Numbered from the stretch's first letter, positions 260-62,766 are shown. The stretch: 64,000 nt of DNA from Thermoanaerobaculia bacterium (GCA_963719225.1 CAVRAY010000001.1:768001-832000); one strand, 5' to 3'. The notes: generated from the letters alone by a model not told the origin. Numbers and translations are program-made.

Positions 260-610
260 TCAGCCTTTCACGAGGAAATTTCGTTCGGAGAGGATTCTTC
301 GAAGGCTGTCGCGGTGGTCGCCCTGGAGCTCGATGAGGGCGTCACTGATCGTCCCACCGGTGCCGAGCTGCTTCTTCAGCTCCTTTCCCAAACCCTCTAA
401 GAAATCTGAATTCCTCGGAAGTCCGTCGAGAACCGTCACGATCTTCCCGCCTCGCCCTTTCTTCTCGATTCGCAGCTTGACGACCACCTTCGAAGGAACC
501 TTCTCTTCGACCTTAGAAGAGCACTTGCAGTCGTTCGCCGGCCAGCCGCACGTCGCGCAGACGGAGCCGACCGCCGTGGAATAGACGAGCCGGACGGGAT
601 CCTGCCTCAC
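260..610 (-). CDS. yciH: SUI1/YciH family translation initiation factor
   Basis: LVYST...CATCGWP...KKGRGGKIVT...LKKQLGTGGT...IELQGDHR signature. GTG start at 610 chosen because TATCCT lies 6 nt upstream. Confidence 0.9.
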   Translation of the reverse strand: MRQDPVRLVYSTAVGSVCATCGWPANDCKCSSKVEEKVPSKVVVKLRIEKKGRGGKIVTVLDGLPRNSDFLEGLGKELKKQLGTGGTISDALIELQGDHRDSLRRILSERNFLVKG

Positions 611-629
611 GACCTCAGGATAATCCCCC
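611..629. promoter_or_regulatory. Bidirectional leaderless promoter between yciH and arfB
   Basis: Only 19 bp separate the divergent starts. GATAAT (619-624) lies 5 nt before ATG630; TATCCT on the minus strand lies 6 nt before GTG610. Confidence 0.55.
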
Positions 630-1061
630 ATGGCCGATCCGATCCCGGTCGCCCCGGGTGTCACCATTCCGGAAGCCGCGCTCGAGGTGCGGCAGGTCAG
701 GGCGTCGGGTCCGGGCGGGCAGAACGTGAACAAGGTGGCGTCGCGCGTGGAGCTGCTCGTCGACGTCGAACGCATCGAAGGTCTGGACGCCGCCGCGCGC
801 GCTCGCCTTTACGTCCTGGCCGGGAGGAGGCGGGCCGCCGACGGGCGGCTGCGCCTCGTCGCCCAGGAAAGCCGCGACCGGCACCGGAACCTGGAAATCG
901 TCCGCGAGCGAGCCCGGGACCTCGTCGGCCGGGCCCTTCAGGCTCCCGCCGCCCGGCGGCCCACCCGCCCCTCCCGCGGCGCGAGAGAGGCGAGGCTTCG
1001 GACGAAAGCGAAGGAGAGCCGCCTCAAAGCGGCCCGCCGCCCGGTCGGGACCGATGAATAA
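630..1061 (+). CDS. arfB: Alternative ribosome rescue aminoacyl-tRNA hydrolase ArfB (YaeJ)
   Basis: RASGPGGQNVNKV GGQ motif; basic C-terminal tail RRPTRPSRGAREARL. Confidence 0.93.
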   Translation: MADPIPVAPGVTIPEAALEVRQVRASGPGGQNVNKVASRVELLVDVERIEGLDAAARARLYVLAGRRRAADGRLRLVAQESRDRHRNLEIVRERARDLVGRALQAPAARRPTRPSRGAREARLRTKAKESRLKAARRPVGTDE

Positions 1062-1156
1062 CCGAATAGCGCATCTGAACTACTGCAAGTAGCGCATCCC
1101 GGGCCCATCGTTCACTCTGGCGGGCCGTGGCGGCCTCTGCCCAGGAGGATTCGACT

Positions 1157-2494
1157 ATGTCATCCAATGCACCGCGGCAGTCTGTGACCGTCACCGACAA
1201 CCGCACCGGAAAAACGATCGAGGTCCCGATCCAGAACGGGACGATCAAGGCGCTCGACCTTCGGGTCCTGAAGACGTCCCCGGACGACTTCGGCCTGATG
1301 ACCTACGACCCCGCGTTCATGAACACGGCGTCTTGCAAGAGCAAGATCACGTTCATCGACGGGGACAAGGGCATCCTGGAATACCGGGGATACCCGATCG
1401 CTGAGCTCGCCGAGAACACGACGTATCTCGAGACCGCGTATCTCGTCCTCAACGGGGAGCTGCCGACCAAGCAGCAGCACACGGACTGGGTGAAAGACGT
1501 CACCTTCCACACGATGGTCCACGAGGACATCAAGGACTTGATGGCGGCCTTCCGGTACGACGCGCACCCCATGGGAGTGCTCGCCTCCACGGTCGCGGCG
1601 CTGTCCACGTTCTATCCGGAAGCGAAGGACGTTCACTCGCCCGAGACCCGGAGGCAGCAGATCGTGCGCCTGGTCGCGAAGATGCCGACGCTGGCCGCGT
1701 TTGCCTACCGCCACTCGATCGGCTTCCCCTATGCGTATCCGGACAACGACCTGTCGTACACCGGCAACTTCCTGCAGATGATGTACCGCGCGGCCGAGCC
1801 GAAGTACCGGCCGAATCCCGTCCTCGAGCGGGCTTTGGAAGTCCTCTTCATCCTGCATGCCGACCACGAGCAGAACTGCTCGACGAACGCGATGCGCGCG
1901 ATCGGCTCCTCGGAGGCCGACCCGTATTGCTCGGCAGCCGGCGCGATCTCGGCCCTCTACGGCCCGCTGCACGGCGGGGCGAACGAGGCCGTCCTCCGCA
2001 TGCTGTTCGAGATCGGCTCGAAGGCGAACATCCCGGCGTTCATCAAGTCCGTCAAGGAGAGCGGCGGCGAGACGCGCCTCATGGGCTTCGGCCACCGCGT
2101 CTACAAGAACTACGACCCGCGCGCGAAGGTCATCAAGAACATGGCCGAGAAGGTCTTCGAGGTCACGGGCCGCAACCCGCTCCTCGACATCGCCCTCGAG
2201 CTCGAGCGCATCGCGCTCCAGGACGAGTACTTCCTGAAACGCAAGCTCTACCCGAACGTGGACTTCTATTCGGGCCTCATCTACCAGGCCATGAAGTTCC
2301 CCGTCGAGATGTTCCCGGTGCTCTTCGCGATTCCGCGCATGTCCGGCTGGCTCGCCCAGTGGAACGAGATGATCGAGGACAAGGAGCAGAAGATCGCCCG
2401 GCCGCGTCAGGTCTTCCTCGGCGCTCGGGAGCGTCACTTCACCCCGTTCGAGAAGAGGGAAGTCAAGACGGAGGGCGTGCTCACGACGGTGTAA
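1157..2494 (+). CDS. gltA: Citrate synthase
   Basis: [33 protein letters not shown] and YPNVDFYSG motifs; AGGAGG RBS before ATG1157. Confidence 0.97.
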
Positions 2495-2897
2495 TCGGCA
2501 AACGCGTGATCGGGGTCGGCTGCCTCTTCTCGTCCACGTTCACGTAGACGACCTCGGCCTCGGTCACCTTCACGGTCTCGTCCGTCTTCCGCCAGCGCTC
2601 GGCGGTGACGAGGACCTTGATGGTGATCGAGGTTCGGCCGATGCGGGCGACGGTCGTGTAGAAGCTCACGACGTCGCCCACGAAGACGGGGGCGTGGAAG
2701 ACGACCTCGTTCATCTTCACGGTGAGGACGCGGTCGCAGTGCGCCCGCGTCGCGATCGCCCCGGCCTGGTCGATGTAGGCGAGGAGCACTCCGCCGAAGA
2801 TCGTGCCCTGGCCGTTCGTGTCGCGCGGGAACATCGACACGCGGATCGCGGGCTGGAGACCCGGGGACGAGGATTGAGCGCCGGTCTCGGAGTTCAT
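2481..2897 (-). CDS. Acyl-CoA thioesterase (hotdog fold, YciA-like)
   Basis: [25 protein letters not shown]...[10 protein letters not shown]. Confidence 0.9.
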
Positions 2898-2928
2898 GGC
2901 GGGATTATGGCGGGCTAAGATCCTTTTC

Positions 2929-5118: not shown

Positions 5119-5129
5119 GAGGAGAGTAA

Positions 5130-5814: not shown

Positions 5815-5868
5815 GACGGGTGAAACTATCGGGCGGAGCCGAAGGCGTCAAGCGGCCGGGGCTCACGG

Positions 5869-8736: not shown

Positions 8737-8830
8737 CCTAGTACGTTTGCATGGTCGTATGCGTCGCAATGCCGGTGCTAGGCTTCGTCGTTGGGCACGT
8801 CCGACCGACGTGCAGGGAAGGAGCGAAGTC

Positions 8831-13223: not shown

Positions 13224-13305
13224 TTTTCTTCGAAGGGTGAATGGGCCGATTGCATAGGGCCGAGGCTGAGCCGCGAGGCGCCTGCACATTCACCTTCTAA
13301 GAAAA
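13224..13305. repeat. Inverted pair of the TTCTTNGAAGG motif (19-20 bp arms)
   Basis: TTTTCTTCGAAGGGTGAATG (13224-13243) versus CATTCACCTTCTAAGAAAA (13287-13305): near-perfect inverted repeat with a 43 bp spacer. Confidence 0.85.
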
Positions 13306-13357
13306 ACAGCCCGACGTGAGCCCCACTGTAGGTCGTTGCGCTCCGCCGTTCACCTCC

Positions 13358-16640: not shown

Positions 16641-19600
16641 CTACCTCACCGGCATCGCCGGCCGCTTCGGCTTCTGCGGCGGGTTCTTCTTCAGCTCCTC
16701 CATCACGATCGCGATCGCCTTCTCGAGCTGCGGGTCGTGGCCGGCGATGACGTCGGCGGGCATCTGCTCGACTTCGACGTCGGGCGGGACGCCGACGTTC
16801 TCGACGCCGAAGCCTTCCTCCGGCGTCCAGAAGCCGAGGTTCGGAGCGGTGACGACGGCGCCGTCCATGAGCGTCGGGAAGCCGAGGATGCCGACGAGGC
16901 CGCCCCACGTGCGCTGGCCCACGAGCGTCCCGACCTTGAAGTGCCTGAACATCCACGGCAGGAGATCGCCGCCGGAGCCGGCGGTCTCGTCGATGAGCAT
17001 GACCTTCGGACCCTGGATGGACGCGCTCGGCGTCTTGAGGTCGTCGCCGTAACGCATCGCCCACCACGCGATGGGCTGGCGTGTCAGCGCCTCGATGTAG
17101 TAATCGGCCACGCTGCCGCCGCCGTTGAAGCGCTCGTCCACGATGATCGCGTCGCGTGAGGCCTGGGGATAGAAGTACCGCTTGAAATACGTGTGGCCGA
17201 GCTCCGCCGTGTTCGGGACGTAGACGTACGCGACGCGTCCGCCCGTCGCGGCGTCGACCTTCCGCAGATTGCCCTCGACCCAGTCGCGGTTGCGGAGCGT
17301 CGCCTCGTCCGCCACGGGGACCACGCTGACCGTGCGCGAGAGCGTGCCGTCCGGCTTCGGCCCGACCGTGATCTCGATGATCTTTCCGGCCGTGCCCTCG
17401 AAACGCGCGTAGAGGTTCTCGGGCGGCGCGAGATCCTTGCCGTTCACCGCGAGGAGGTACTCGCCGGACCTGACCTCGACGCCCGGCTCGGAAAGCGGCG
17501 CGCGCAGCTCGGGGTTCCAGTTCAGGCCGCCGAAGACTTTCTTGAAGCGGTAGCGGCCGTTCGCGACTTCGTAGTCCGCGCCGAGCAAGCCTCCCTGTAC
17601 ATGAGCGATTTCCGCGAACGAGTCGCCCGGCGTGTTCCGGTGGTGGCCGACGGCGAGCTCGCTGCACATCCACTGGATGAGGCGGTTGAGGTCGGTCCGC
17701 GAGGACAGGTACGGGACGAAGGCGGCGTACTTCGCCTTCATGGCCTTCCAGTCGGCACCGTGCATCTTCGGGTCGTAGAAGTAATCCCGGTTGACGCGCC
17801 AGGCTTCGTCGAAGATCTCGGGCCATTCGTCCCGAGGGTCGACGCGCACGGCGATCGCGTCGAGCTTGAGCTTGCCGTCGGAGCCTTCCTTCGGCTTGCC
17901 GTCCGAGCCGTCCTTCGTGTCGGCCTTCTTCGGCGACGAGGAGACGAGCGACCACGACTCTTTTTGCGGAGCTCCCGGCGGCGCCTCTCTCGGCGCGGAC
18001 TCCTTGTCCTTCTGCCTGAAGAGGATCTTCTTCCCGTCGAAGGACACGAAGTAATCCTCGGCCTCGGGGACGACCGTCTCGGCCTTGCGCTCCTTGAAGT
18101 CGAAACGCTGGACGGACGTCTTGCCGTCCGCCTTGCGCTGGAAGAAGAGCTGGCCCGCGCTGCCGGCCTGGAGGTTCGAGATCTCGGCGGGGTGGACAGG
18201 CAGGTCGACGATGCGGACGTTGAAGCCGTCGCGGTCGATGACGACGGGCGCGGGCGGCTTACCCTTGGCACCTTTCGAAGAATCTTCTTTCTTCTCGTCG
18301 GTCTTTCCCTCTTTAGCCTCTTCGCCCTTCTCCTCGTCGCTCTCCTTCGCGAGAGGCGAGGGCGTGCCCCTCTTCAACGTCGCCACGTAGATCGCGTTCG
18401 TGATGCGCGCGTCGGTGTTCTGCAGGGAGAACCAGTTGCGCTGCGGGCCCGCGTCGGTGGACGCGAGGAAATAGAGGAGCCTCCCGGCCTTGTCGAAGGC
18501 GGGGTCCGACACGTCCGAGAGGCCGTCAGTGAGGGGATAGGACTTGCCCTCGTCGAGGGAGTAGACGTACGCCGTCCGGATGTACGTGGGCCCGGAGAGC
18601 GTGTAGGCGACCCAGCGCGAGTCCGGCGACCACGAGCCGCGTAGCATCCTGTAACGCGCGGGCGCGTAGAGTCGCTCGGTCGCGATCTTTTTCGAGGCTC
18701 CGCTCGCGACGTCGACGATGTGGAGCGTCAGGGAGTTGTCCGTCAGGACGATCTTCTTTCCGTCGGGCGAAAAGACGAGCTCGTCGTAGAAGCCCGCGCC
18801 CGGAACCTTGATCGTCTTCGGCGCCCCCTTGCCGTCCTGCGCCCTGACGACGATCTCGTTCTCGCCGCTCTCGTCCGAGACGTACGCGATCTCCTTGCCG
18901 TCCGGCGACCACGCGGGCGCGCGCTCGTGGAAGGCGGTCGTGCGCGTGAGGTTGCGCGCGTCGCCCTTCTCGGCGGGCACGGTCACGATCTCGCCCCGGA
19001 ACTCGAACGCGGCGCGCGCGCCGGAGGGGGAGAGCGCGGCCCCGCGGATCCACTTCGCGCCCTTCGCCCAGCGCGGGCGCGTCTCGAGGAGGTCGCCGGG
19101 AACCGTGATCGAAAGGTCGGTGACCTTCTTCGAGGCGGGGTCGAGGAGGTGAAGGGTGCCGGCCTGCTCGAAGACGATGCGCCCGGCGGCTCCGGAAGCG
19201 TTGAGGACGGGGAAATCCGTGTAGCGGGTGAGCCGGGAGAGAGAGAAGGATTTCTTGGAAGGACTAGCTGGGTCCGCCGTTTGATCGAGAACGTAGAGGT
19301 TGAACTCGCCGTCGCGATCCGAACGTAGGACGATGGTCGCTCCCCCGCCTCCGCCGGCTCCGTTCACCCATATCGGGTCCGCGTCGTTGCACCGCGTCGC
19401 GGGCTGCGGCACGTGCTGGATCGCGTGCGTCGCCACGTCGTAGAGCCATATCCTGGAAACCGTGCCGCCGCGGTAGCGCTTCCACTGCAGGTGACGGGGG
19501 CCGTTCGGGCTGTAGGCGATCGTTTTGCCGTCGGGGGAGTACGCGGCTCGGTCGGCGTACGGGATCGGCAGGGCCGTTTCGAGGCCGCCCTCGACGGGCA

Positions 19601-20042
19601 CCGTGTAGAGCTGCGTGTGCCGGTTGTTGACCGCCGCGCGCGGCGACGTGAAGAGGACGGCCTTGCCGTCCGGCGTGAACGCCTGCACGACGTCGCGGCC
19701 CGGGTGCCACGTGAGGCGCTTCGGCACGCCGCCGGCGGCGGGGACGACGAAGACGTCGAGGTTGCCGTCCAGCTCGGCGCTGAACGCGAGGAGCGAGCCG
19801 TCCGGGCTGAAGGCGGGACGCATCTTCACGCCGGGCCCCGAGCTGATGCGTTGGACACCGCCGCCGTCGAGGCGGCAGGTCCAGACGTCGTTCCCGTAGA
19901 CGAAAGCGATCCGGTCGGCCGAGAGCGCGGGGTCCGTGAGCATCTTCGATGGCCCGTACGGCGCCGTCGCTGCGAGCGCAACGGAGGCGTCGGCGTAAGA
20001 CAGCACGAGGGAAAGGGCAACGGCGGCGAGAGGCACGCGCAT
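16641..20042 (-). CDS. Tricorn-like protease (S41), secreted
   Basis: PD40/beta-propeller repeats (PAFSPDG), WKRYRGG, PDZ domain, DERFNGGG, AGSGGD catalytic Ser, GQRTWGG, ENVGVPPD, DPQLEKAI. Confidence 0.95.
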   Translation of the reverse strand: MRVPLAAVALSLVLSYADASVALAATAPYGPSKMLTDPALSADRIAFVYGNDVWTCRLDGGGVQRISSGPGVKMRPAFSPDGSLLAFSAELDGNLDVFVVPAAGGVPKRLTWHPGRDVVQAFTPDGKAVLFTSPRAAVNNRHTQLYTVPVEGGLETALPIPYADRAAYSPDGKTIAYSPNGPRHLQWKRYRGGTVSRIWLYDVATHAIQHVPQPATRCNDADPIWVNGAGGGGGATIVLRSDRDGEFNLYVLDQTADPASPSKKSFSLSRLTRYTDFPVLNASGAAGRIVFEQAGTLHLLDPASKKVTDLSITVPGDLLETRPRWAKGAKWIRGAALSPSGARAAFEFRGEIVTVPAEKGDARNLTRTTAFHERAPAWSPDGKEIAYVSDESGENEIVVRAQDGKGAPKTIKVPGAGFYDELVFSPDGKKIVLTDNSLTLHIVDVASGASKKIATERLYAPARYRMLRGSWSPDSRWVAYTLSGPTYIRTAYVYSLDEGKSYPLTDGLSDVSDPAFDKAGRLLYFLASTDAGPQRNWFSLQNTDARITNAIYVATLKRGTPSPLAKESDEEKGEEAKEGKTDEKKEDSSKGAKGKPPAPVVIDRDGFNVRIVDLPVHPAEISNLQAGSAGQLFFQRKADGKTSVQRFDFKERKAETVVPEAEDYFVSFDGKKILFRQKDKESAPREAPPGAPQKESWSLVSSSPKKADTKDGSDGKPKEGSDGKLKLDAIAVRVDPRDEWPEIFDEAWRVNRDYFYDPKMHGADWKAMKAKYAAFVPYLSSRTDLNRLIQWMCSELAVGHHRNTPGDSFAEIAHVQGGLLGADYEVANGRYRFKKVFGGLNWNPELRAPLSEPGVEVRSGEYLLAVNGKDLAPPENLYARFEGTAGKIIEITVGPKPDGTLSRTVSVVPVADEATLRNRDWVEGNLRKVDAATGGRVAYVYVPNTAELGHTYFKRYFYPQASRDAIIVDERFNGGGSVADYYIEALTRQPIAWWAMRYGDDLKTPSASIQGPKVMLIDETAGSGGDLLPWMFRHFKVGTLVGQRTWGGLVGILGFPTLMDGAVVTAPNLGFWTPEEGFGVENVGVPPDVEVEQMPADVIAGHDPQLEKAIAIVMEELKKNPPQKPKRPAMPVR

Positions 20043-31955: not shown

Positions 31956-34610
31956 TCAGCGCGTCGGCGGGGAGGGAGCGGTCGTCTTGAGCCGCGCGCC
32001 CGCGCCCGCCGACACGAGGTTTACGAAGAAGCGGTACGCGCCGGGGACGCCGGCCGGCAGCTGCCGGAAGAACGCGTATCCGGTGTAGACGAACGCGCCC
32101 TTTCCGTGCCGCGCGAAGAGGAGGCCGCCGGGTTTCGCGCCCTCGCCGGGATCGTGCGTCTCGATCGTCGTCTCGTAGCGGGGGTCCCACGTTCCCGGGA
32201 AGTAGAGGCCGCGCTCCTGCACCCACCCGTCGAAATCGGCCGGCGTCAGCCTGTTCGGAAAGTTGAGAAGCGAGCTCCCGGGGTTCAGGAATTTCACCGG
32301 GGCTTCCTCGACGGTGACGCGATCCCGGGAGATCTTGAAGGGGTACGGCCCGATCTGTTCCGTGACGAGGTCTCCCGTCGTGTTGTACTGCGCCACGAGC
32401 GTGCCGCCTTTCTCGACGTAATCCTCGAGCCGCGCCTGGGCGAGCTTCAGACGCGGGCGCGTGTTGTAGGCGCGAATTCCGGTCACGATCGCGGCATAGC
32501 GCGACAGATCGCCGTTCTCGAGCTCGTCGTCGGCGAGGAGGGTCACGGTGTAGCCCATCTGACGCAGCGCGTCGGGGACCTCATCGCCGGAGCCCATGAC
32601 GTAGCCGACGGGCGCCTGCGGCGCTTTCACGTCGAGACGCAGGACTTTCGCCTCGGCGGGAGGAAACAGCGTCCGAGGGGAGATGTGCGGATAGTCGACG
32701 CGCACGAGACCGCGCGCATGCACTTTTCCGCTCACGACCGCTTCGGCCGTGAGCGTCGCCACGGAAGATCCGGCAGGCGGCGTCACGGTGAACGTCACCG
32801 CCTTCTCCTCGCCGCGCGCCGTGAACGCGAACGGCACCTCGGCCGGCGACGCGGCGAACCCGGACGCCGTCTTCAACCGCAGCACTCCCGAGACGGCGGC
32901 GCCGGCCGTCAGCGTGACCCGCACCTTCTTCGGCTTCTCGGTCTCGAACGCGTAGACCTTCTCGTCGAACGTCGCCGTCACGGGCGGCGTGATGACGAAC
33001 GGGCGGTACATCTCGCCCTTGACGGGGTCCGTGCGGCGGAAGACGACGGGCGCCTCGAGCGGGATCGGGACTCCGTCGACTCGGACCGTGAAGCGCGCGA
33101 CGAGAGGCGGCGGGTTCTCGGGGAGGCCGATGAGGGCCGGGTCGGTCACGGTGAATAGTCCCTTTCCAGGCCGGTCCCTCAACCAGTAGGGTTGCGTCGT
33201 CTCGACGTCTCCGGGCAGGGTCAGCGAGATCTCCCGCCGCAGCGGCTCGTTCTGCGCGAGGGCGCCGCCCTCTCCGGGCGCGCCCGCGTACGTCACCGAG
33301 ACCGTCTCGAGCGTCGCCGGTCGGGGCGAGCGGTTCAGGATCATCGTCGCGACCTTCACGCTCGCGCCGGGCGCGGCGGAAGGCTCGCTCGCGACCGCCT
33401 CGACCCAGACGCCGAGACAGGCGCGGATCGCGTCGGCGATGTCGTGGCGCTTGCGCGCGAGGAGGGGGTCCATTTGCTTCGGACCCTCTCCGCGCTTGCT
33501 GCCTTCTCGCGAGGTCGTTTCGGGGATCTGCTTAGAAGGTGAATTGGGCGGCGTGCTCGCCGATTCGGTCACTCGCCCGAGGAGCGTCCATGCTTCGACC
33601 AGCTGGGGAACCGAGGCCGCCGGATCCGTTGGGCGAAATGCCTCCTCCACCTTTCTAAGAATTCTTCCGACTTCCTCTCCCTTCGGCCCATACCGCCCCC
33701 ACGACAGGTCGATTCCCTCGAAGAGGTCCTTCTCCGCCGGCGCGCCCGCGATGTTCTTGAAGTCGTTGAGCCACGTGCCGCGCCGCTCGGCGGAGCCGAA
33801 ACCCTGGCTCTTGTGCATGGACCGGCTGAGCGCCGCGATCTCGGTGTACGAGCGGCCCAGGAGCGCGTTGTAGGCACCGAGGTCCGCCGTGACCTGTCCG
33901 GGCACGTCCTTGCGCGGCGCGTCGCCGCCGAAGCGGAAGACGTTCCAGACAAGCCGTTTCGGCTGCCACGGCGTGAGGACGTCGAGCTGGTCGGGAAACC
34001 GCGACGGGTCGCCCGCGGCCTTGAACGCCTCCTCCGCGAGAATCGCCGAGGCGGTGTGGTGGCCGTGGCCGCCTTCGCCGGTCGTCGGGAAGCGCGTGAC
34101 GATCACGTCCGGCCGGAACGTGCGGATGACGCGCACGGTGTCCGCGAGCACCTGCTCCTTCCCCCAGATCCGGAGCGTTTCCTCGGGGGTCTTCGAATAG
34201 CCGAAGTCGACCGCGCGGGAGAAGAACTGCTTCGCCCCGTCGAGGCGGCGCGCCGCGAGAAGCTCCTGCGTCCTGAGGACGCCGATGAGCTCGCCTGACT
34301 CGGTGCCGATGAGATTCTGGCCTCCGTCGCCGCGCGTCATCGACAGGTACCCCGCGTCCACGAGCCTCTCGCGGGAGGCCCATGCGAGGAACGCCGTGTT
34401 CTCGTCATCGGGGTGGGCCGCGACGTAGAGGACGCCGCCGACGACGTTCAGCTTCGCGAGCGCGAGCCGGATCTCGGCTGCATTCGGTGCCTCGGCGGGA
34501 GCCGCGGCGAGCAGGACGGGCGAGTCCGCCACGGAAACCGCGAACGCCGCGAAGAGCGCGAGGACGAGGAGGACGGCCGCCGGCCGGCGGGAAGAGAGGC
34601 GTCGCGTCAT
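31956..34610 (-). CDS. PIG-L/LmbE family deacetylase, large secreted type
   Basis: AAHPDDE, TRGDGGQN, DFGYSK, HGHH, RSMHKSQGFG, GWVQERG, FFRQLPAGVPGAYR. Confidence 0.92.
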   Translation of the reverse strand: MTRRLSSRRPAAVLLVLALFAAFAVSVADSPVLLAAAPAEAPNAAEIRLALAKLNVVGGVLYVAAHPDDENTAFLAWASRERLVDAGYLSMTRGDGGQNLIGTESGELIGVLRTQELLAARRLDGAKQFFSRAVDFGYSKTPEETLRIWGKEQVLADTVRVIRTFRPDVIVTRFPTTGEGGHGHHTASAILAEEAFKAAGDPSRFPDQLDVLTPWQPKRLVWNVFRFGGDAPRKDVPGQVTADLGAYNALLGRSYTEIAALSRSMHKSQGFGSAERRGTWLNDFKNIAGAPAEKDLFEGIDLSWGRYGPKGEEVGRILRKVEEAFRPTDPAASVPQLVEAWTLLGRVTESASTPPNSPSKQIPETTSREGSKRGEGPKQMDPLLARKRHDIADAIRACLGVWVEAVASEPSAAPGASVKVATMILNRSPRPATLETVSVTYAGAPGEGGALAQNEPLRREISLTLPGDVETTQPYWLRDRPGKGLFTVTDPALIGLPENPPPLVARFTVRVDGVPIPLEAPVVFRRTDPVKGEMYRPFVITPPVTATFDEKVYAFETEKPKKVRVTLTAGAAVSGVLRLKTASGFAASPAEVPFAFTARGEEKAVTFTVTPPAGSSVATLTAEAVVSGKVHARGLVRVDYPHISPRTLFPPAEAKVLRLDVKAPQAPVGYVMGSGDEVPDALRQMGYTVTLLADDELENGDLSRYAAIVTGIRAYNTRPRLKLAQARLEDYVEKGGTLVAQYNTTGDLVTEQIGPYPFKISRDRVTVEEAPVKFLNPGSSLLNFPNRLTPADFDGWVQERGLYFPGTWDPRYETTIETHDPGEGAKPGGLLFARHGKGAFVYTGYAFFRQLPAGVPGAYRFFVNLVSAGAGARLKTTAPSPPTR
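33525..33667. repeat. Inward-facing pair of TTCTTNGAAGG-like motifs inside the PIG-L gene
   Basis: GATCTGCTTAGAAGGTGAAT (33525-33544) and CCACCTTTCTAAGAATTCTTC (33647-33667). Confidence 0.7.
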
Positions 34611-44502: not shown

Positions 44503-44507
44503 CGCGT

Positions 44508-46967
44508 CTAAGGGTACAGCAGGAACGCGGCCCGCCGCCTCTCGGACTCCATCGATCCTGCGGCCCAGGCGCCCGTGATCTCGCCGGCGGTCTCGCCGCG
44601 TGAAAAGCGCGCGAGCGCGGCGCGGCTGACGAGGAGACGGTTCAACTTCTCCCCGTTCCACTCTTTCGCGTGCAGGTCGCGGAGGGCGGTCGCGACGTGG
44701 AAGCCGAGGGCCACCGCGTTCAGAGCATTCCGGTCGACGAGCGTGATCCGGACGCCGGAGCACTCCTCGTCCTTGAAGACCGACGAGAGAGGCTTGAAGC
44801 GCACGGGCGTGAAGCGCACTCCGGCGAGGCCGCGCGCGTTCAAGGTCGCCGCGACGCGCGGGCCGTCCATCCACGGCGCGCCAAAAATCTCGAACGGGGA
44901 GTCGGTCCCGCGCCCGACGGAGAGATTCGTCGTCTCGAGGAGGCCGATCCCCGGATAGAGCGCCGCCTGGGTCACCGAACGGAGGTTCGGCGAAGGGTTC
45001 ACCCAGGCGAGGCCCGTCTCGTCGTACCAGAGGTCCCGCGCGTAGCCCCGCATCTTCACGACCGTCAGGTCCGCACCGAGCTTTTTCTCCGCGTTGTAGA
45101 GAGTCGCCAGCTCGCCGATCGTCATCCCCGTCCGGATCGGCGTCGTGTGATACGCGACGAAGGAGAGCGCGTCGTCGTCGGCCGGCGGGCCCTCCCGCAC
45201 GTCGGCGCGAATCGGGTTCGGCCGATCGAGGACGAAGACTTTCACTTTCGCTTTCGCCGCCTCTTCGAGGACGTAGCCCATCGAGGCGAGATACGTGTAG
45301 AAGCGGCAGCCCGCGTCCTGCAGGTCCACGACGACGGCATCGAGGCCCTTGAGATCCTCGGGCCGCGGCCGGCGCGACTCGGGCGTATCGCCGTAGAGCG
45401 AGCGAACGGGGAGGCCCGTCTTCTCGTCGGTGGAGTCGGAGACCTTCTCGTCGAGCGCCCCGCGGATTCCGTGCTCCGGGGAGAAGAGCTTGGAAAGGGT
45501 CACGCCCGCTGACTTTGCCTTTGCCGAGGAAAGTACGTCGATCGTGGAGCGGCCGTCGCGCGTAAGGCCCGTGTGGTTCGTGAGCAACCCGATGCGCATT
45601 CCAGAAATGAATTTGAACGAAGATTCTTCGAGTGTGTCGATGCCCGGCCGGACCTGCCCCAGAACGCGCGCATGCTCGGCAGCGGCCTCTATACCACTCG
45701 AAGAACGCGCCGCAGGCGCGGGCGCCGAAGGCGCGCTCGTGCTCTTCGAAGCTGCCGTCGCGGCGCCGATGGCGGCAAGGAAGGCAGTCCCCTCCGAAGC
45801 CTTTCTAAGCTCTTCCGGTGTCCTGTCCGTGATTGCGCTCGCGACGATCGTCGCGACCCTGCCGCGCAGCGGGATGACGTTTCCGGACTCGTCGGGATGG
45901 TTGCGGTTCGTGAGGAGGATGACGAACGTCTCCGTCGTCGGATCCAGCCAGAGAGACGTGCCGGTCCAGCCGGTGTGTCCGTAGGATCCGAGCGGAAAGA
46001 GATCCCCGCGGACCGACGAAAAGCGCGTGGCGACGTCCCAGCCGAGGCCGCGAAGATCGTCGTCGCCGTAGGAGCGCGGACGTGTCATCGCGGCGACCGT
46101 CGCGGGCGAGAGCACCCCGCTCCCGCCCGCGAGCATCGCCGCGCAGAACTTCGCCAGGTCGTCCGCGGTCGAAAAAAGTCCCGCGTGGCCCGCGACGCCG
46201 CCGAGCGCCGAGGCGCGCGGGTCGTGGACCGCGCCCCGCCGGATCTCGCCGTTGATCTTCTCGGTGGGGGCGATGCGGGAGAGCGGAGGAGAAAAGAAAG
46301 AAGAAGATTTCTTGGAAGGTGAAGAGGGAGAGAGGGGAAGGAAGCCCGTGTCCTTCATTCCGAGGGGCTCGAAGACGCGTTTCGCCGCGTATTCGTCGAG
46401 TGGAAGAGAAGAGATCCGACGCACCATTTCGCCGAGGACCTCGAATCCCGCATCCGAGTAAAGGAAGCGCGATCCGGGCGCCGCGACGAGCGGCTGCCTG
46501 TATTTCTTTTCGAAGATCTCCTGCGGCGAACCGACATAGAGCGCCATCGGATCGTCGGCGGCCAATCCCGCCCGATGCGTCAGGAGCTGCTCCACGGTGA
46601 CCTGGTCTCGGGCGCCGCCGCCCGACGCGAATTCGGGGATGTGTTTCGCGACGCGGTCCTGGAGGCGGACCTTCCCATCCTCGACGAGCGCCATCACGCT
46701 CGTCGCCGTCGCGACGACCTTCGTGAGGGACGCGAGGTCGAAGACCGTCTCCGGCGTCATCGGCTCGACGGCCGGAAGGACCGCACGGTTGCCGTAGGCT
46801 TTGCGAAAGACGATCTTTCCGTGCCGGCCCACGAGGACGACCGCGCCCGGGCACTCCTTGTTCCGGATCGACTCTTCGACGACGGAATCGATGTGGCTCA
46901 GGCGGCCGGCGGACATTGCCGCCGCGGACGGTTGGACGACCGCGAGCGCCAGGAGCAGAGAGATCAT
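44508..46967 (-). CDS. Serine hydrolase (beta-lactamase/AmiE-like) fused to DUF1343 / NamZ exo-beta-N-acetylmuramidase
   Basis: FDLASLTK (SxxK), YSD, GHTGWTG; then LLTNHTG, FSPEHG, DLQDAGCRFYTY, LDRPNP, PSPNL, GRGT. Confidence 0.9.
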   Translation of the reverse strand: MISLLLALAVVQPSAAAMSAGRLSHIDSVVEESIRNKECPGAVVLVGRHGKIVFRKAYGNRAVLPAVEPMTPETVFDLASLTKVVATATSVMALVEDGKVRLQDRVAKHIPEFASGGGARDQVTVEQLLTHRAGLAADDPMALYVGSPQEIFEKKYRQPLVAAPGSRFLYSDAGFEVLGEMVRRISSLPLDEYAAKRVFEPLGMKDTGFLPLSPSSPSKKSSSFFSPPLSRIAPTEKINGEIRRGAVHDPRASALGGVAGHAGLFSTADDLAKFCAAMLAGGSGVLSPATVAAMTRPRSYGDDDLRGLGWDVATRFSSVRGDLFPLGSYGHTGWTGTSLWLDPTTETFVILLTNRNHPDESGNVIPLRGRVATIVASAITDRTPEELRKASEGTAFLAAIGAATAASKSTSAPSAPAPAARSSSGIEAAAEHARVLGQVRPGIDTLEESSFKFISGMRIGLLTNHTGLTRDGRSTIDVLSSAKAKSAGVTLSKLFSPEHGIRGALDEKVSDSTDEKTGLPVRSLYGDTPESRRPRPEDLKGLDAVVVDLQDAGCRFYTYLASMGYVLEEAAKAKVKVFVLDRPNPIRADVREGPPADDDALSFVAYHTTPIRTGMTIGELATLYNAEKKLGADLTVVKMRGYARDLWYDETGLAWVNPSPNLRSVTQAALYPGIGLLETTNLSVGRGTDSPFEIFGAPWMDGPRVAATLNARGLAGVRFTPVRFKPLSSVFKDEECSGVRITLVDRNALNAVALGFHVATALRDLHAKEWNGEKLNRLLVSRAALARFSRGETAGEITGAWAAGSMESERRRAAFLLYP
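46303..46324 (+). repeat. TTCTTNGAAGG motif with purine-rich flanks inside the serine hydrolase gene
   Basis: GGAGAAAAGAAAGAAGAAGATTTCTTGGAAGGTGAAG; encodes SPSSPSKKSSSFFS on the minus strand. Confidence 0.75.
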
Positions 46968-54338: not shown

Positions 54339-54361
54339 TCCGGTCACGTCCGTGGAGAGCT

Positions 54362-56191: not shown

Positions 56192-56196
56192 GAGCG

Positions 56197-57507: not shown

Positions 57508-57555
57508 GAGGCCGCGATTCTGCCAGCTTCGAGGCTTCGCGGTACGATGGTGGAG

Positions 57556-57909
57556 ATGCACGTCGAAGTCCGCAAGACGAAGGACGTCGTGATCGTCGAC
57601 CTCCAGGGCCGCCTCCTCGCGGGGGTCGGCGACGAGATCCTGAGGGGCGTCGTGAACGAGCTTCTCGCCGAGGGCTGGAAGAAGATTCTGCTCAATCTCT
57701 CCGAGGTGACCTCGATCGACAGCGCGGGAACGGGCGAGCTCGTGGCGAGCCACAAGATCTGCGAGCGGTTCGGGGCGAAGCTGAAGCTCCTGAACCTGCA
57801 CGAGCGCGTCCGCAAGAGCCTCCATCTTTCCCAGCTCCTTCCGGTCTTCGAGGTCTACGACGAAGAACGCGTTGCCCTTCGACACTACGAGGAGAAGAAG
57901 GCCCCCTGA
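57556..57909 (+). CDS. STAS domain anti-sigma factor antagonist
   Basis: ILLNLSEVTSIDSAGTGELV. Confidence 0.9.
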   Translation: MHVEVRKTKDVVIVDLQGRLLAGVGDEILRGVVNELLAEGWKKILLNLSEVTSIDSAGTGELVASHKICERFGAKLKLLNLHERVRKSLHLSQLLPVFEVYDEERVALRHYEEKKAP

Positions 57910-57931
57910 TCCCGGGCCTTTCGGGAGGGCC

Positions 57932-60517
57932 GTGCCTTCGTCTTTCGCCCGATTCGCCGCTCTCGGCTTCGCGCTCGTCTCCTCGGGCTCGGCGGCGCAG
58001 GGGCTCCCGTGGTCGCGGATCGCTCTCGAGAGGGTCGCGTCGGGCTTCACGAACCCCGTCCACGTCACGCACGCGAACGACGGCAGCGCGCGGCTGTTCG
58101 TCGTGGAGCAGCGGGGACGCGTGCGGATCCTCAAGGACGGCGCGATCCTTCCGACGCCCTTTCTCGACATCTCCTCGCGCGTGAGCTTCGGCTCGGAGCG
58201 CGGCCTCCTCTCGATCGCGTTTCCTCCCGGCCGCGGCAGGAAGAGCGAGTTCTATGCGGACTACACCGACGTCAGGGGCGACACGGTTATCTCGCGCTTC
58301 ACGGTGTCCGGCGATCCGAACGTCGCGGACGCGACATCCGAACAGATTCTCCTCAGCATTGCCCAGCCCTTTGCGAACCACAACGGCGGGCAGCTCGTGT
58401 TCGGGCCGGACGGCTACCTTTACGTCGGCATGGGCGACGGCGGGGACGCGGGCGACCCCAACAACAACGCGCAGAATCTCGGGAGTCTTCTCGGAAAGAT
58501 TCTTCGAATAGATGTGCGGGGCGCGGCTTCGCCATACGGTATTCCGCCCGACAACCCTTTCGCAGGATCTTCCTCTTCGCGTCCCGAGATCTGGGCGTAT
58601 GGGCTGCGAAACCCCTGGCGTTTCTCGTTCGACCGCAAGACGAACGTGCTCTACATCGCCGACGTCGGTCAGGGGGCGTGGGAAGAGGTGGATGTGCAGC
58701 CCGCGGAGAGCACCGGTGGCGAGAACTACGGCTGGCGGCTCACGGAAGGGAACCACTGCTTCACCCCTTCCACCGGCTGCCCGACCGCCGGCATCACGTT
58801 CCCCGTCGCCGAGCACTCGCACGCGGGCGGGAACTGCTCGGTGACGGGCGGCTTCGCCTATCGAGGCCGCGATTTCGACGCCCTGACGGGAATCTACTTC
58901 TACGGCGACTACTGCAGCGGGCGGATCTGGGGCCTTCGCCGCACGGACACCGGGTGGGACGACATCGAGCTCCTGAAGCCCGGCTTCGCGATCTCCACGT
59001 TCGGCGAGGACGAAGCGGGCGAGATCTACGTCGCCGACTACACGGGAGGCGTGATCCATCGCCTGACCGACGCGGACGGAAAGAGCGCGGTGCGGCTCGT
59101 GCCCGTGGTCGTCGACGTCATCGGTCGCACCGGGGCGCGCTTCGTTTCGGAGCTGACGCTGGGAAACCGCGGCACGACGGCCGCTTCGGTCGACCTGACG
59201 TTCACCGCCGCGACGTCGCTGGCGAGCTCGGGAAGCGGCACGGTGACGGAGACGGTGCCCCCGGGACGCCAGCTCGTCTTCGCCGACACCCTCGAATACC
59301 TTCGCGGAAAGAACCTGACGATTCCGGCCGGAAACCAGGGCGGTACGCTTCGCCTCGTCTTCAGGGGGATCTCGTCCGGCGACGCCGCCTTCGCTTCGGT
59401 GCGGACACAGGCCGTGCTGCCCGAGGGCCGCGCGGGCCTCGCGTATCCGGCCCTCTCTCCCGCTGAGACCGCGGAGAAGGGTATCTCGCTCTTCGGACTG
59501 CGCGAGGACGCCGCGTTCCGGAGCAACCTCGCGCTCGTGAACGCCGGCGATCCGGCCGCGAAGACGAGCGTGCTCCTGCAGGTCACGCTCACGAGCGGCG
59601 ACCCGGGTGACGGGCGGCGCTTCGCCCTGGCGCCCGTCAGCCTCCAGGCCGGACAGTGGATGCAGCTCAACCAGGTCCTGCAGCTGGCGGGCATGACGAA
59701 CGGGTGGGCGACCGTCGAGCGCGTGGGAGGCGTCGATCCCTTCTACGCGTACGCCGTCGTCAACGACAACGTCACCGACGACGGCGCGTTCGTCTCGCCC
59801 GTGGCCGCCGGACGGAGATCGGATCGACAGATGCTGCCCGTCGCGGTGGGGACGGGCAGTTTCGTGACCGAGCTCGCGCTGACGAATCCGGGCACCGACG
59901 CGATCAAGTTGACATTCAGGGAGGCAAACGCCAACAAAGACGTCGTCCTACAGCCGCGAGAGCAGCGATTCATTCCCGACGTGCTCTCATTTCTCGGGCT
60001 TGCCTCGTCGGCGACGCCGCTGGAGATTTCTTCGAATGGAGGGGCGACGGCGTTCCATGCGAGCGCGCGCACGTTTTCGTCCGCGCCCGGAGGCGGGACG
60101 TTCGGCGTCGCATACGCCGCGATACCACCGCCTGATGCGGCCTTGTCGGAAGGCTGGGTCTACGGCCTCAAGCAGAACGGGTCTACGCGTTCGAACCTCG
60201 CGCTTGCGACGGCCGATCCGCCTTTTGGCGGGCCCGGGGGCGCGCAATCCCCCTGGTCCCTTTCATTGGATTTCTTCGACGGCGAAACCGGAAACCTGGC
60301 GGGAACACGCGTTGTGTCCCTGATTCGGTCGTTTCCCGACTGGATACAGTTGAATTCCGCGCTTTCTGCGTTCGGCATCCGAAACGGTTATGTTCGCGTG
60401 CGTGCCCCCGCGGGCAACCTCGATCCGTTCATCGTCTACGGCGTCGTGAACGACGGCGCGGTGCCGGGGCAGGGCACGGGAGACGGCAGCTACATGGCGA
60501 TGACGTCGGTCCCCTGA
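57932..60517 (+). CDS. PQQ-dependent sugar dehydrogenase-like (GSDH) domain with a duplicated C-terminal beta module
   Basis: ERGLLSIAF, NHNGGQL, GKILRID, YGLRNPWR, DVGQ, FGED; two copies of RSNLAL...(Y)xVVND. Confidence 0.87.
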   Translation: MPSSFARFAALGFALVSSGSAAQGLPWSRIALERVASGFTNPVHVTHANDGSARLFVVEQRGRVRILKDGAILPTPFLDISSRVSFGSERGLLSIAFPPGRGRKSEFYADYTDVRGDTVISRFTVSGDPNVADATSEQILLSIAQPFANHNGGQLVFGPDGYLYVGMGDGGDAGDPNNNAQNLGSLLGKILRIDVRGAASPYGIPPDNPFAGSSSSRPEIWAYGLRNPWRFSFDRKTNVLYIADVGQGAWEEVDVQPAESTGGENYGWRLTEGNHCFTPSTGCPTAGITFPVAEHSHAGGNCSVTGGFAYRGRDFDALTGIYFYGDYCSGRIWGLRRTDTGWDDIELLKPGFAISTFGEDEAGEIYVADYTGGVIHRLTDADGKSAVRLVPVVVDVIGRTGARFVSELTLGNRGTTAASVDLTFTAATSLASSGSGTVTETVPPGRQLVFADTLEYLRGKNLTIPAGNQGGTLRLVFRGISSGDAAFASVRTQAVLPEGRAGLAYPALSPAETAEKGISLFGLREDAAFRSNLALVNAGDPAAKTSVLLQVTLTSGDPGDGRRFALAPVSLQAGQWMQLNQVLQLAGMTNGWATVERVGGVDPFYAYAVVNDNVTDDGAFVSPVAAGRRSDRQMLPVAVGTGSFVTELALTNPGTDAIKLTFREANANKDVVLQPREQRFIPDVLSFLGLASSATPLEISSNGGATAFHASARTFSSAPGGGTFGVAYAAIPPPDAALSEGWVYGLKQNGSTRSNLALATADPPFGGPGGAQSPWSLSLDFFDGETGNLAGTRVVSLIRSFPDWIQLNSALSAFGIRNGYVRVRAPAGNLDPFIVYGVVNDGAVPGQGTGDGSYMAMTSVP

Positions 60518-60560
60518 AGCTACCGGCCCGCGGCACGCGGTCTGCTAACGTGACGACGAC

Positions 60561-61720
60561 GTGGATGCGTCTGCGCTGATTCGACGCCTCGGGAGGACGC
60601 TCCTCACGCTGACTCTCGCCGCGGCCGGTCCTGCCGCCGCGCAGACCGACGCGCCCCCCGCGACGCCTACTCCCGCCGCGGCGCCCACCCCCGACATCCC
60701 ACCGCCTCAGGCGGGAAGCGGCGGCAGCCAGACGACGAACTACTTCAATCCCAGCATCTCGGTGATCGGGAACTTCCTCGCCGTCGCCGGCCAGAACCGG
60801 GTGGAGAGCCTGCCCAACGCGAGCCTGCGGGAATCGGAAGTCGGCCTCCAGGCGATCGTCGACCCGTACGGCCGGGCCGATTTCTTCCTCTCCTTCGGAG
60901 AGGAAGGCGTCGAGGTGGAAGAGGGCTTCCTGACGTTTACTTCGCTGCCCGCGGGCCTGCTCGCGAAGGTCGGCCGGATGCGCGTGGCATTCGGCAAGAT
61001 CAACACCCTTCATCTCCACGTCCTCCCGTGGCCCGACGCGCCTCTGCCGATCGTGAACCTCCTGGGAGGCGAGGAGGGGTGGATCGGAACGGGCGTCTCT
61101 CTCGCGAAGCTCCTTCCCCTGCCCGGCGACACCTTCTCGGAGATCACGGCGCAGGTGTTTCGCGGGGATTCGGCTGGTTTGTTCGTCGCCGAGAAGCGGA
61201 GCGATCTGGCCTACAACAGTCACTACCGTGTCTTTCGGGACCTGAGCGATTCCACGAACCTCGATCTCGGCTTCTCGTACGGGCAGGGTCCGAACGGAAC
61301 GGCCGCGGACGCGGTGACGCGCCTCGAGGCGATCGACGCGACGTTTCGTTGGAAACCGCTCGTGCGCGGAAACTACAAGTCCGCCTCTTTGAGGGGGAGC
61401 TCTTTCGCAGCCGGCGCGACCAGCCTGACGGCCCCCGAACCGCATGGGGGTGGTTCGTCTCGGGCGAGTACCAGCTCTCCAAGCGCTGGTTCACCGGGGC
61501 GCGCTTCGAGTCCTCCGACCATGCGGACGACTCTGCCAAGCGCGACACCGGCGTCGCCGTGACCCTGACCTTCTGGCCGAGCGAGTTCTCCCAGGTTCGA
61601 GGAGAGTTCCGGCGCCGCCGCTACGAAGGCTATCCAGGCGCGCCGGAAATCTACACGGCCAACGAGCTCCTTCTCCAGCTGCAATTTGCGATCGGCGCGC
61701 ACGGCGCGCACCCGTTCTAG
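60561..61720 (+). pseudogene. Outer-membrane beta-barrel (metal-uptake associated), split by a 1-nt frameshift in a G run
   Basis: First frame FNPSISVIG...DPY...YKSASLR; the continuation GELFRS...EFSQVR...IGAHGAHPF* is in another frame. The run at 61393-61397 has 5 G where 6 would restore the frame. Confidence 0.8.
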
Positions 61721-61740
61721 TGACGAAAGGCTCGGAGATC

Positions 61741-62766
61741 ATGAAGACGGCGAAAGAAGATTCTCTTAGAAGGGTAAGAGGGCGGCTCGCATCGGCTTCG
61801 GCTGCGCCAGGTGGCATCGCCCGCACCACACGCACCGGCCACCTTCTAAGAAAATCCCCGGTCTCCCTCTCTCTCTTGCTCATCGCGCTTCTCTTCTCTT
61901 CCGCCGCGGAGGCGAAGCTCCGGGTCGTCACGTCCCTCCAGGACCTCGCCTCGATCGCGGACGCGATCGGCGGCAACCGGGTGGAGACGTACGCGCTGGC
62001 GAAGGGATATCAGGACCCGCATTTCGTGGACGCCAAGCCCTCCTTCATCCTGAAGCTCTCCCGCGCCGACGTCCTGATCGTCGCCGGTCTCGAGCTCGAG
62101 GTCGGCTACCTGCCGCCGCTGATCGACCAGAGCCGCAACGACAGGATTCATCCCGGCAGCCCCGGGTATCTCGACGCTTCGAGCGGCTGCGACATCCTCC
62201 AGCGGCCGACCCAGCAGGTCACCCGCGCGATGGGCGACGTGCATCCGTACGGGAACCCGCACTACTGGACCGATCCGGAAAACGGCCGCGTGATCGCGCG
62301 GGCCATCGCCCGGAAGCTGTCGGAGCTCGATCCCTTCGGGAAGGCCGTCTTCGAGAAGAACCTCGCCGCTTTCGAAGGACGTCTGACCGAGAAGGAGAAG
62401 GAATGGAACACGAAGATGGGTTCCTACGCGGGGACGAAGGTCGTGACCTTCCACGACTCCTGGCCGAACTTCGCCAAGTACTTCAAGCTCTCGATCGCAG
62501 GGCACATCGAGCCGAAGCCGGGCATTCCGCCCTCGCCCTCTCACACGCTCGAGATCATCAACCTGATCCGGGCGCAGAAGATCCCGGTGATCCTCATCGA
62601 ACCCTACTTCGACAGCAAGACGCCGAAGTACATCGGAGAGAAGACGGGCGCCGCGGTGGTCACGTTCTACCCGTCGGTCGGCGGGATTCCGGAGATCAAG
62701 GACTACTTCTCGCTCTTCGATCACAACATCGAAGCCTTCGTCTCGGCCAGCAAGGCAAAGAAATAG
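61741..62766 (+). CDS. Metal (Zn/Mn) ABC transporter substrate-binding protein
   Basis: QDPHFV, GLELE, GDVHPYGNPHYW, FHDSW, EPKPGIPPSPSH. Confidence 0.92.
   Translation: MKTAKEDSLRRVRGRLASASAAPGGIARTTRTGHLLRKSPVSLSLLLIALLFSSAAEAKLRVVTSLQDLASIADAIGGNRVETYALAKGYQDPHFVDAKPSFILKLSRADVLIVAGLELEVGYLPPLIDQSRNDRIHPGSPGYLDASSGCDILQRPTQQVTRAMGDVHPYGNPHYWTDPENGRVIARAIARKLSELDPFGKAVFEKNLAAFEGRLTEKEKEWNTKMGSYAGTKVVTFHDSWPNFAKYFKLSIAGHIEPKPGIPPSPSHTLEIINLIRAQKIPVILIEPYFDSKTPKYIGEKTGAAVVTFYPSVGGIPEIKDYFSLFDHNIEAFVSASKAKK
61756..61856. repeat. Inward-facing motif pair at the 5' end of the metal-binding-protein gene
   Basis: GAAGATTCTCTTAGAAGGGT (61756-61775) and CCACCTTCTAAGAAAATC (61839-61856). Confidence 0.8.

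Follow-up and report, generated by a model that had tools for sequence, protein, structure and literature searches.

Few DNA words override protein coding hundreds of times per bacterial genome, and those that have been explained (uptake sequences, Chi, the FtsK-orienting polar sequences or KOPS, matS, and the Noc and SlmA sites) have each exposed a machine. Uptake sequences (the uptake signal sequences, USS, of Pasteurellaceae and the DNA uptake sequences, DUS, of Neisseriaceae) are described as abundant, coding, and shaping tripeptides and reading frames (PMC2817400). In the matS/MatP system of Escherichia coli, 23 copies of a 13-bp site stand some 35 kb from one another and only in Ter, with bridging proposed (PMC6907758). 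Chromosomal hairpins (CHINs) are H-NS/StpA hairpins with a median size of 2 kb at silent foreign AT-rich genes, with a loose H-NS motif (PMC12460168). Here we describe a polar DNA motif that recurs in inward-facing pairs, first noticed in a 64-kb stretch (G000:C1:768001-832000, hereafter the window) of a genome (G000; two contigs, C1 and C2, 4.75 Mb, 68% GC) from a Thermoanaerobaculia bacterium, a member of an uncultured group of Acidobacteria. It constitutes a real, selected and clade-specific DNA grammar that, in the features tested, fits no described family; literature searches (motif, taxon, convergent coding sites, nucleoid proteins), with most subscription papers and supplements outside their scope, returned no description of it.

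Six exact cores were found in the window, against 0.07 expected from dinucleotide shuffles (none of 100 shuffles reached six), and 15 against 2.5 when one mismatch was allowed. The sequence-only reading from which this analysis started had put the chance expectation at 0.02 per window, a figure that proved too low, while the strong excess it reported stands. Across G000 we counted 319 exact cores, versus 14 for the reversed pattern, and an iterated weight matrix recovered 813 matches of at least 18 bits (808 once overlaps were merged) as opposed to about 10 in a fifth-order Markov control. The consensus spans about 27 bp (RRRRRWT-TTCTTNGAADG-DRAARRGG), with the core TTCTTNGAA lying between purine tracts. 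Since C2, G6 and A7 of the core are almost invariant, the core is a TTC-N3-GAA dyad, and the purine-rich flanks, found on one strand, make the site polar. The proposed tie between the motif and the pentamers CTAAG/CTTAG was borne out, as 342 of their 704 genomic copies fall within sites.

With genes called by a purpose-built hexamer model (4,197 genes, 90% coding; window hosts cross-checked with Pfam), 561 of the 808 sites are coding (4,296 kb) and 247 intergenic (454 kb), i.e. four times denser between genes. The coding sites are split into 283 sense and 278 antisense, occupy all six frames, are uniform along gene length and reside in unrelated hosts (a ribosomal cluster, kinases, hydrolases).

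The orientation of neighbouring sites is non-random, as had been claimed: plus-then-minus (inward) neighbours lie within 300 bp in 259 of 289 cases, versus 7 of 289 for minus-then-plus (outward) ones, just two of which are below 237 bp. Cross-correlation yielded 56-59 pairs per 20 bp at distances of 60-100 bp and a shoulder at 120-140 bp, the level at 1-5 kb being about one per 20 bp. Few pairs are thus spaced below 60 bp, the maximum is at 60-100 bp and a tail extends to 260 bp, so that the spacers of 40-110 bp initially described cover too narrow a range. The rule extends to weaker copies, since 237 strong sites without a strong partner had a weaker opposite site (at least 10 bits) on the inner side in 97 cases and on the outer side in 7. 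Among 258 pairs, 150 are wholly within one gene, 70 are intergenic (12 expected) and 38 lie across a gene end; the median spacing is 82 bp for intergenic and 123 bp for coding pairs (pairs at 91 bp excluded).

The suggestion that constraint acts on the DNA rather than on the protein was upheld by codon-preserving shuffles: with proteins held fixed, four synonymous-codon shuffles (well-supported genes only) left 32-41 of 465 coding sites. Conservation points the same way. In a relative that is 77% identical (G231; 800 kb compared, holding 290 sites and 106 inward pairs), 194 sites could be aligned, and the same place in G000 scored at least 18 bits for 148 of them and at least 10 bits for 166. 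Over 123 coding sites compared between the two genomes, cores were 89.8% identical and free of gaps, as against 69-74% identity in the flanks, and 77% (97/126) of the fourfold-degenerate positions in cores were conserved versus a 57.5% background. Both members of 55 of the 68 alignable G231 pairs are present in G000, with arbitrarily varying spacer lengths (e.g. 134/122, 126/163, 97/127). The SUI1 gene of the window illustrates this: of the 8 nearest orthologous loci, 7 have a site where the window encodes DFLEG (393), distant orthologues having AAFLKD-like sequence there, and the partner is offset by 98 bp in the window and in locus L005 and by 114 bp in loci L006-L009, in a different helix of an ungapped alignment. 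What is kept is therefore the pair and not the place, with partners turning over without indels. Sites originate through point changes in existing sequence.

The sites of the window are listed below (positions counted from its first letter).

260..667, minus strand: intact host gene of the SUI1/YciH family (PF01253; by alignment)
295..305, plus strand: core TTCTTCGAAGG within the SUI1 gene (peptide SLRRIL), weakly flanked, scoring 12.7 bits and forming an inward pair with 393
393..403, minus strand: site core scoring 22 bits within SUI1, where it encodes DFLEG
487..497, minus strand: weak third site, 14.9 bits, creating a plus-minus-minus cluster in SUI1
13226..13303: inward pair 13226 (plus) and 13293 (minus), 30 and 29 bits, 67 bp apart; intergenic, downstream of a succinate dehydrogenase Fe-S gene (Pfam)
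18272..18282, minus strand: site of 22 bits without partner, within the tricorn-like protease gene 16641-20042
19252..19262, plus strand: unpaired site, 22 bits, peptide SPSKK, in the same protease gene
33529..33661: inward pair 33529 (plus) and 33651 (minus), 27 and 30 bits, 122 bp apart; peptides SPSKQ and ILRK, within the PIG-L-domain gene 31956-34610
45624..45634, plus strand: weak site in the NamZ-domain gene 44508-46967, scoring 15 bits, with its best inward partner (9.5 bits) at 45695
46309..46517: strong site 46309 (plus) with weak inward partner 46507 (minus), 37 and 14.5 bits, 198 bp apart; in the NamZ-domain gene, the long GA tract of 46309 coding for a Ser run
58500..58510, plus strand: site in the glucose/sorbosone dehydrogenase-domain gene 57932-60517, scoring 21 bits and faced by a weak inward partner at 58557 (11.7 bits)
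60028..60038, plus strand: site without clear partner, 24 bits; in the same dehydrogenase gene
61763..61852: inward pair 61763 (plus) and 61842 (minus), 34 and 21 bits, 79 bp apart; intergenic, upstream of a ZnuA-family gene

All six exact cores lie where they had been reported (295+, 13226+, 13293-, 19252+, 46309+ and 61842-), and the one-mismatch copies were recovered at 393, 18272, 33529, 33651 and 61763. Of the weaker copies proposed, those near 45619, 58498 and 60023 are real (at 45624, 58500 and 60028), and the one at 45800 scores 1.6 bits and is no site. The four inward pairs that had been recognised hold up, with core-to-core distances of 98, 67, 122 and 79 bp; their placement inside coding sequence applies to 295/393 and 33529/33651, while 13226/13293 and 61763/61842 are between predicted genes. 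The sites at 19252 and 18272 have no partner inside 300 bp. Among the peptides ascribed to the motif, SPSKK, SPSKQ, SLRR, ILRK and DFLEG are encoded and LLRK is absent from the predicted genes at these sites. The closest relatives of the SUI1 protein are Thermoanaerobaculia or Acidobacteriota records. As a separate observation, 9 of the 11 genome copies of CTACAGTGG (one example being window 13321-13331 on the reverse strand) lie upstream of a site core, at 28-29 bp, and the sites so linked form a small subclass whose outer flank is T-rich in place of GA-rich.

Inward-facing copies invite comparison with the ends or scars of mobile elements (a miniature inverted-repeat transposable element, a hairpin-forming doublet of repetitive extragenic palindromes, or an invertible segment), as inverted terminal repeats also face inward and a small subclass has CTACAGTGG ahead of its cores at 28-29 bp. 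Nevertheless, the spacers of coding pairs are in-frame host protein, ungapped against orthologues and mutually unrelated save among kinase paralogues, and 50 of 54 orthologous spacers keep the same orientation (two are weakly reversed and two tied); for coding pairs this explanation is refuted, and we grant it next to no chance. A hairpin formed by the arms as RNA or single-stranded DNA, serving a nuclease or RNA-binding protein in the manner of repetitive extragenic palindromes (REP) with their tyrosine transposases (RAYT) or of Ssn, would draw on arms that are complementary by consensus (about -24 kcal/mol). True partners were, however, no better paired than shuffled ones: the RNA arm-to-arm duplex energy was -23.7 kcal/mol for both (114 coding pairs, either strand), DNA energies were likewise equal (234 pairs, z about -1.2), partner covariation was absent in 151 non-redundant pairs (block z -1.4 to 2.0 versus shuffled partners) and the inner spacers folded no better than shuffles. 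Moreover, short loops are avoided, G000 has no Y1 transposase, a small GIY-YIG nuclease occurs in G000 only, and Rfam gave no match anywhere in the window, so that the hairpin is largely refuted and very improbable. Because the sites are conserved, and partners are exchanged with no indels, show no covariation and are not inverted, the pairs are neither mobile elements nor hairpins. The lack of covariation, the duplex energies equal to those of shuffled partners and the near-equal numbers of sense and antisense sites suggest that the motif is read as double-stranded DNA, and we regard it as very probable that the pairs are selected sites read in this form by some protein.

The spacer belongs to the unit and carries its own base-step signature. 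In 100 coding-pair spacers the GC content was 71.9% versus 66.3% in the flanks, GpC steps were enriched (0.153 versus 0.108, p 3e-10) and GA/TC steps depleted; GpC frequencies behaved alike in 58 intergenic spacers (0.152 versus 0.107) and 87 G231 spacers (0.149 versus 0.114). Set side by side, the coding, intergenic and G231 values were 0.147, 0.152 and 0.149, with 0.107-0.117 in DNA beyond the spacers. When the protein was held fixed, an excess of TGC/GCA persisted in spacers (z 7.7, flanks 2.1). CTG/CAG-rich DNA bends readily and purine tracts are stiff. The reading that we favour, with a confidence a little short of even, is that some sequence-specific protein likely binds both members of a pair and would make a microloop of the spacer by bending or wrapping it. 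A predicted dimeric protein (likely dimeric because the TTC-N3-GAA core is a dyad) would read the core, with the purine flanks setting the direction, and two bound units would contact each other or enclose the 40-200 bp between them as a small loop. A DNA U-turn would place inward-facing sites side by side in parallel, as at the tip of a supercoil or in a chromosomal hairpin in miniature. The steric type of spacing (few pairs below 60 bp and a peak at 60-100 bp) suggests such looping or wrapping.

The same spacing could arise if the sites loaded or stopped a DNA-tracking enzyme (a translocase, helicase-nuclease or nickase) whose action requires a head-to-head meeting of two copies, the motif then being a self-mark for repair or defence, as with type III restriction enzymes or McrBC. 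Strict inward orientation, a minimum distance and no helical phase are what would be expected of sliding or translocating enzymes, and a clade-restricted presence with gains and losses resembles a defence trait. Such an enzyme is nonetheless unlikely: enrichment of cutting sites in the host's own genome would be surprising, the base-step signature of the spacer is left unexplained, there is no replichore skew of the Chi/KOPS type (392 sites point towards the terminus and 416 away), and strong ResIII matches are absent from three motif-rich genomes (G000, G231 and G174; best E about 1e-12, generic helicases) and present in G082 (motif-poor) and G166 (motif-free).

If the pairs served a global transcription factor as operators or roadblocks, controlling or insulating transcription from inside genes and spacers, the fourfold intergenic density and the surplus of intergenic pairs would be accounted for, and the TTC-N3-GAA dyad resembles the box of a dimeric regulator. 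Against this, divergent (promoter-bearing) spacers are not preferred (50 sites in 130 kb versus 34 in 68 kb of convergent spacers), coding sites spread evenly along unrelated genes and just 20 of the 258 pairs enclose a gene start, which leaves this possibility decidedly unlikely. Sites came within 300 bp of only 4 of 59 tRNA/tmRNA genes, with no pattern. A side observation concerns the kinase hosts: a tandem array of Ser/Thr kinase genes (G000:C1:2293000-2320000), together with scattered copies, carries in each gene a pair at exactly 91 bp that encodes DFLEGEE...SFEEIP, the outer GA tract being turned into a poly-Ser insertion in the kinase domain.

At the chromosome scale, the origin lies at C2:325-335 kb, where it is marked by dnaA, gyrAB, parAB and a parS palindrome (C2:333826), and a dif-like site was found at C1:2.0376 Mb, close to the turn of the GC skew. 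Provided that both contigs close into one circle, the density of sites per 100 kb rises from origin to dif from 6.6 to 20.6 in coding and from 27 to 104 in intergenic DNA (3-4-fold), the origin-nearest fifth of the chromosome holding 86 sites. In G000, 69 of 243 strict sites fell within the 800 kb around dif, compared with 41 expected; for G231 the corresponding figures were 76 of 289 and 56 (p 0.005). The most AT-rich 5-kb windows have the lowest density (6.7 per 100 kb), and genes with orthologues are denser in sites than those without (22 versus 15). Under the microloop reading there would be some 250-350 architectural units per chromosome, most on the terminus side, possibly for chromosome compaction or for the pinning of supercoil tips.

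Several further features were recorded around the terminus and elsewhere in the genome. A second parAB operon directly adjoins dif (G000:C1:2037865-2039524, L082:9865-11524), terminus-linked ParAB being unusual, and in most loci examined, motif-free genera included, no more than about 430 bp separate a dif-like arm from the end of the ParB2 gene. In 13 of 27 loci of the window's genus (L102-L126) a site beyond dif points at it, nine of these standing 99-102 bp from the XerD arm; this dif-facing site is at once immediately upstream of the lptF/G-like gene. The topoisomerase IV-like parC and parE (C1:1029222 and C1:3740723) are 2.7 Mb apart and not in one operon, and five Lys-rich open reading frames of 45-59 aa (MKKTTKK...DVKP.KGG.VRGG) cluster at G000:C2:201373-206399, like repeated precursor peptides.

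Accumulation by biased uptake and recombination, as for a DNA uptake sequence, could explain hundreds of clade-specific copies, two thirds of them genic, on both strands and in all frames, with enriched peptides, and ComEC is present. Yet a bias in uptake works copy by copy, from which no orientation rule, partner turnover or spacer signature would follow; 150 of the 258 pairs lie wholly in genes with sites 60-260 bp apart, there is one site per 6 kb with a 3-4-fold gradient along the chromosome, and ComEC is found equally in motif-free genomes. We therefore consider an uptake sequence improbable.

Among the genomes sampled, the motif was found in two related genera, the window's genus (g1, all 29 genomes) and its sister (g11). 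Exact cores numbered 126-475 in all 24 other g1 genomes sampled and 2-13, like controls, in 16 genomes of two other families. The pair pattern was present in 28 of 28 g1 genomes, 7 of 8 g11 genomes and none of 26 genomes from eight other genera of the family. Outside g1 and g11, none of 251 class genomes sampled exceeded 6 matches, and outside g1 none of 401 phylum genomes sampled exceeded 2 pairs (the negative sets include G025 and G193, flagged as unpublished, and no claim depends on either alone). Strict sites within g11 amount to 19-60 in six genomes and 2-3 in two. Of the G000 coding sites that could be aligned, 11 of 27 are retained as sites in G174, and none in G082 (27 alignable), G166 (15) or G159 (11); these counts cover the fetched DNA only, and kinase paralogues are counted more than once. 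The retention in G174, as opposed to none elsewhere, implies that the system was in place before g1 and g11 diverged. It has likely decayed in G082 and G268. The sole perfect pair left in G082 (L092:13691-13777) is orthologous to a G174 pair (L088:11540-11625) and sits just downstream of rarA, spanning the start of a thioredoxin-like gene.

In metagenomes (80 loci out of at least 121 matches), 77 loci had 65-74% GC and 3 were AT-rich chance matches; the best match of 75 of the 77 was at least 60% identical to a G000 protein, and sequencing runs contained small shares only, in assembled contigs of relatives, and gave no information on ends, strands, inversion or habitat. The 71 matches in viral contigs (23-59% GC) were all single, with no further sites, which we took as chance. 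No comparable alternative word emerged from motif-free genera or G082 (140 kb of G166, 100 kb of G159, 160 kb of G082), although a sparse dialect would escape such a search, and 100 kb of G020 yielded the motif at once; a GTGAC word in terminus DNA of the genus g13 is codon background.

A search for a co-distributed DNA-binding protein had been proposed, and none was found among 13 candidates or families, with about a fifth of the shared proteome screened. ParB2 beside dif is present in 56 of 63 family genomes, its recognition helix is unchanged in motif-free genera, and two ParB genes occur in motif-rich and motif-free genomes alike. A fourth HU paralogue beside ftsK (G000:C1:2998739-2999023, L234:1492-1776) was found in g1 (25/28), g11 (8/8), g95 and g10 and in none of 17 g13 genomes. 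It fits poorly as the reader, since the motif-free genomes G280 and G075 and the motif-poor G082 and G268 encode it too, and its match to g1 and g11 carries little weight because kin share genes; it could act as an accessory bender. The protein P0001 (G000:C1:3836045-3836539, L447:2545-3039) has 164 aa, is very basic, lies beside tRNA-Gln and has no Pfam match. Its predicted structure (mean local confidence, pLDDT, of 71) comprises two three-helix domains (tandem helix-turn-helix), a flexible linker with an AT-hook-like RRGRPGR and a C-terminal helix, a build that, as modelled, would suit the reading of a polar site; its fold matches (Z at most 6.4, mariner/paired-type bipartite domains at 5.2-5.3) are within background, and Atlas matches are below 0.9. 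In the class survey it was present in 20 of the 22 family genomes, in 2 of the 4 genomes from one other family and in 0 of the remaining 224, so that it is nearly family-confined. As reader it too fits poorly, since 55 of the 62 other family genomes encode it, among them all 17 from motif-free g13, with similar helices; P0001 is likely a lineage-specific nucleoid protein.

Other candidates fared no better. The RAYT family (PF01797) has no member in G000 (97% complete) and is present in motif-free G166 and G159; ComEC, in 5 of 5 genomes with motif-free ones included, does not track the motif; the small GIY-YIG/Ssn frame, found in G000 alone of 5 genomes, is missing from motif-rich G231 and G174; and MatP (PF06303) was found in 0 of 5 (the E. 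coli control was positive). Lsr2 was not found in the motif-rich genomes tested (the H-NS family being outside this search), and the histone fold was either not found there or did not track the motif. Neither of two conserved proteins without known function, of 260 aa (5/5 genomes) and 86 aa (0/5), tracks it, and a Pfam scan of 40 of the 257 soluble proteins common with the terminus region of G174 gave no new lead.

Several results weigh against the microloop reading and are set out together here. Besides the missing co-distributed protein, about a fifth to a quarter of the strong sites appear truly single. With protein held fixed the coding spacers show no GpC excess (z -1.6); this excess vanishes because the encoded stretch is Ala-rich (19.8% versus 12.6%). 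Rigid short DNA loops normally show 10.5-bp phasing, and none was detected in 246 pairs with kinase paralogues collapsed; bumps near 72 and 135 bp and periods of 22.5, 29 and 44.5 bp were insignificant across all periods (p 0.079, the same number of pairs), and G231 offers no independent test as its pairs are largely orthologous. Because phasing is lacking, the link between bound units would have to be flexible. Even spacing of units is rejected (gap coefficient of variation 1.2-1.3, i.e. clumped), G174 has no terminus excess (14 of 60 strict sites around dif versus 12 expected), and the two g11 genomes that live with 2-3 strict sites indicate that the system is dispensable.

A bolder version of the microloop reading, possible if doubtful, holds that convergent pairs may set the positions at which 40-200 bp of DNA with a composition of its own are wrapped or looped by a complex into sequence-encoded, positioned chromatin particles, by analogy a nucleosome-scale counterpart of the convergent-CTCF rule, with P0001, the extra HU or another protein as candidate builders. 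If a protein does loop or wrap the pairs, sequence-positioned bacterial chromatin and a programmable microloop tool would follow. The uneven site numbers within g11 provide a natural experiment from which the reader could be found by genome subtraction.

The early judgement that the motif corresponds to none of matS, parS, KOPS or uptake sequences was sustained in the features that could be tested, and in these it corresponds to neither REP nor a promoter box. None of the three outcomes named beforehand as refuting (no enrichment over a codon-preserving shuffle, random orientation and spacing of pairs, identity with a described REP/IS end or promoter-confined regulator box) came about. Coding copies of USS and DUS stand singly, with no known orientation rule for neighbours. 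Uptake sequences and the motif alike are clade-specific, number hundreds of mostly coding copies on both strands and in all frames, and reshape short peptides; the differences are the inward pair unit of 60-260 bp within genes, partner turnover, the spacer signature and the origin-to-terminus gradient. With matS the motif shares sequence-specific chromosomal sites weighted to the terminus side, and it departs in having about 800 polar sites chromosome-wide, paired at about 75-135 bp, and no MatP in five genomes. CHINs are fold-backs of double-stranded DNA whose arms carry protein and whose loop carries HU, and an inward pair would produce the same geometry; our pairs are 10-30 times smaller, sequence-specific, located in conserved core genes and sparse in AT-rich DNA.

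The TTC...GAA dyad core and the second ParB beside dif recall parS/ParB and the Noc-binding sites (NBS), which have four bases between the half-sites and are full palindromes; the motif has three, with polar flanks and a pairing rule, and the canonical parS is separate from it. REP doublets are also dispersed inward-facing pairs, but they and Ssn hairpins are extragenic, inserted, self-complementary and served by their own nuclease, whereas the motif is overwritten into genes, does not covary and has no nuclease. KOPS and Chi are likewise short, polar, purine-rich words, often genic and present in hundreds per genome, and unlike them the motif is paired and unskewed by replichore (GGGNAGGG is skewed in G000). 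Invertible segments and transposon ends are set apart by the preserved spacer orientation and the ungapped cores. As to type III head-to-head sites, no strong ResIII match was found in three motif-rich genomes. Among these systems, the grammar is new in combining orientation, a minimum and a preferred distance and its own spacer composition under selection in core genes.

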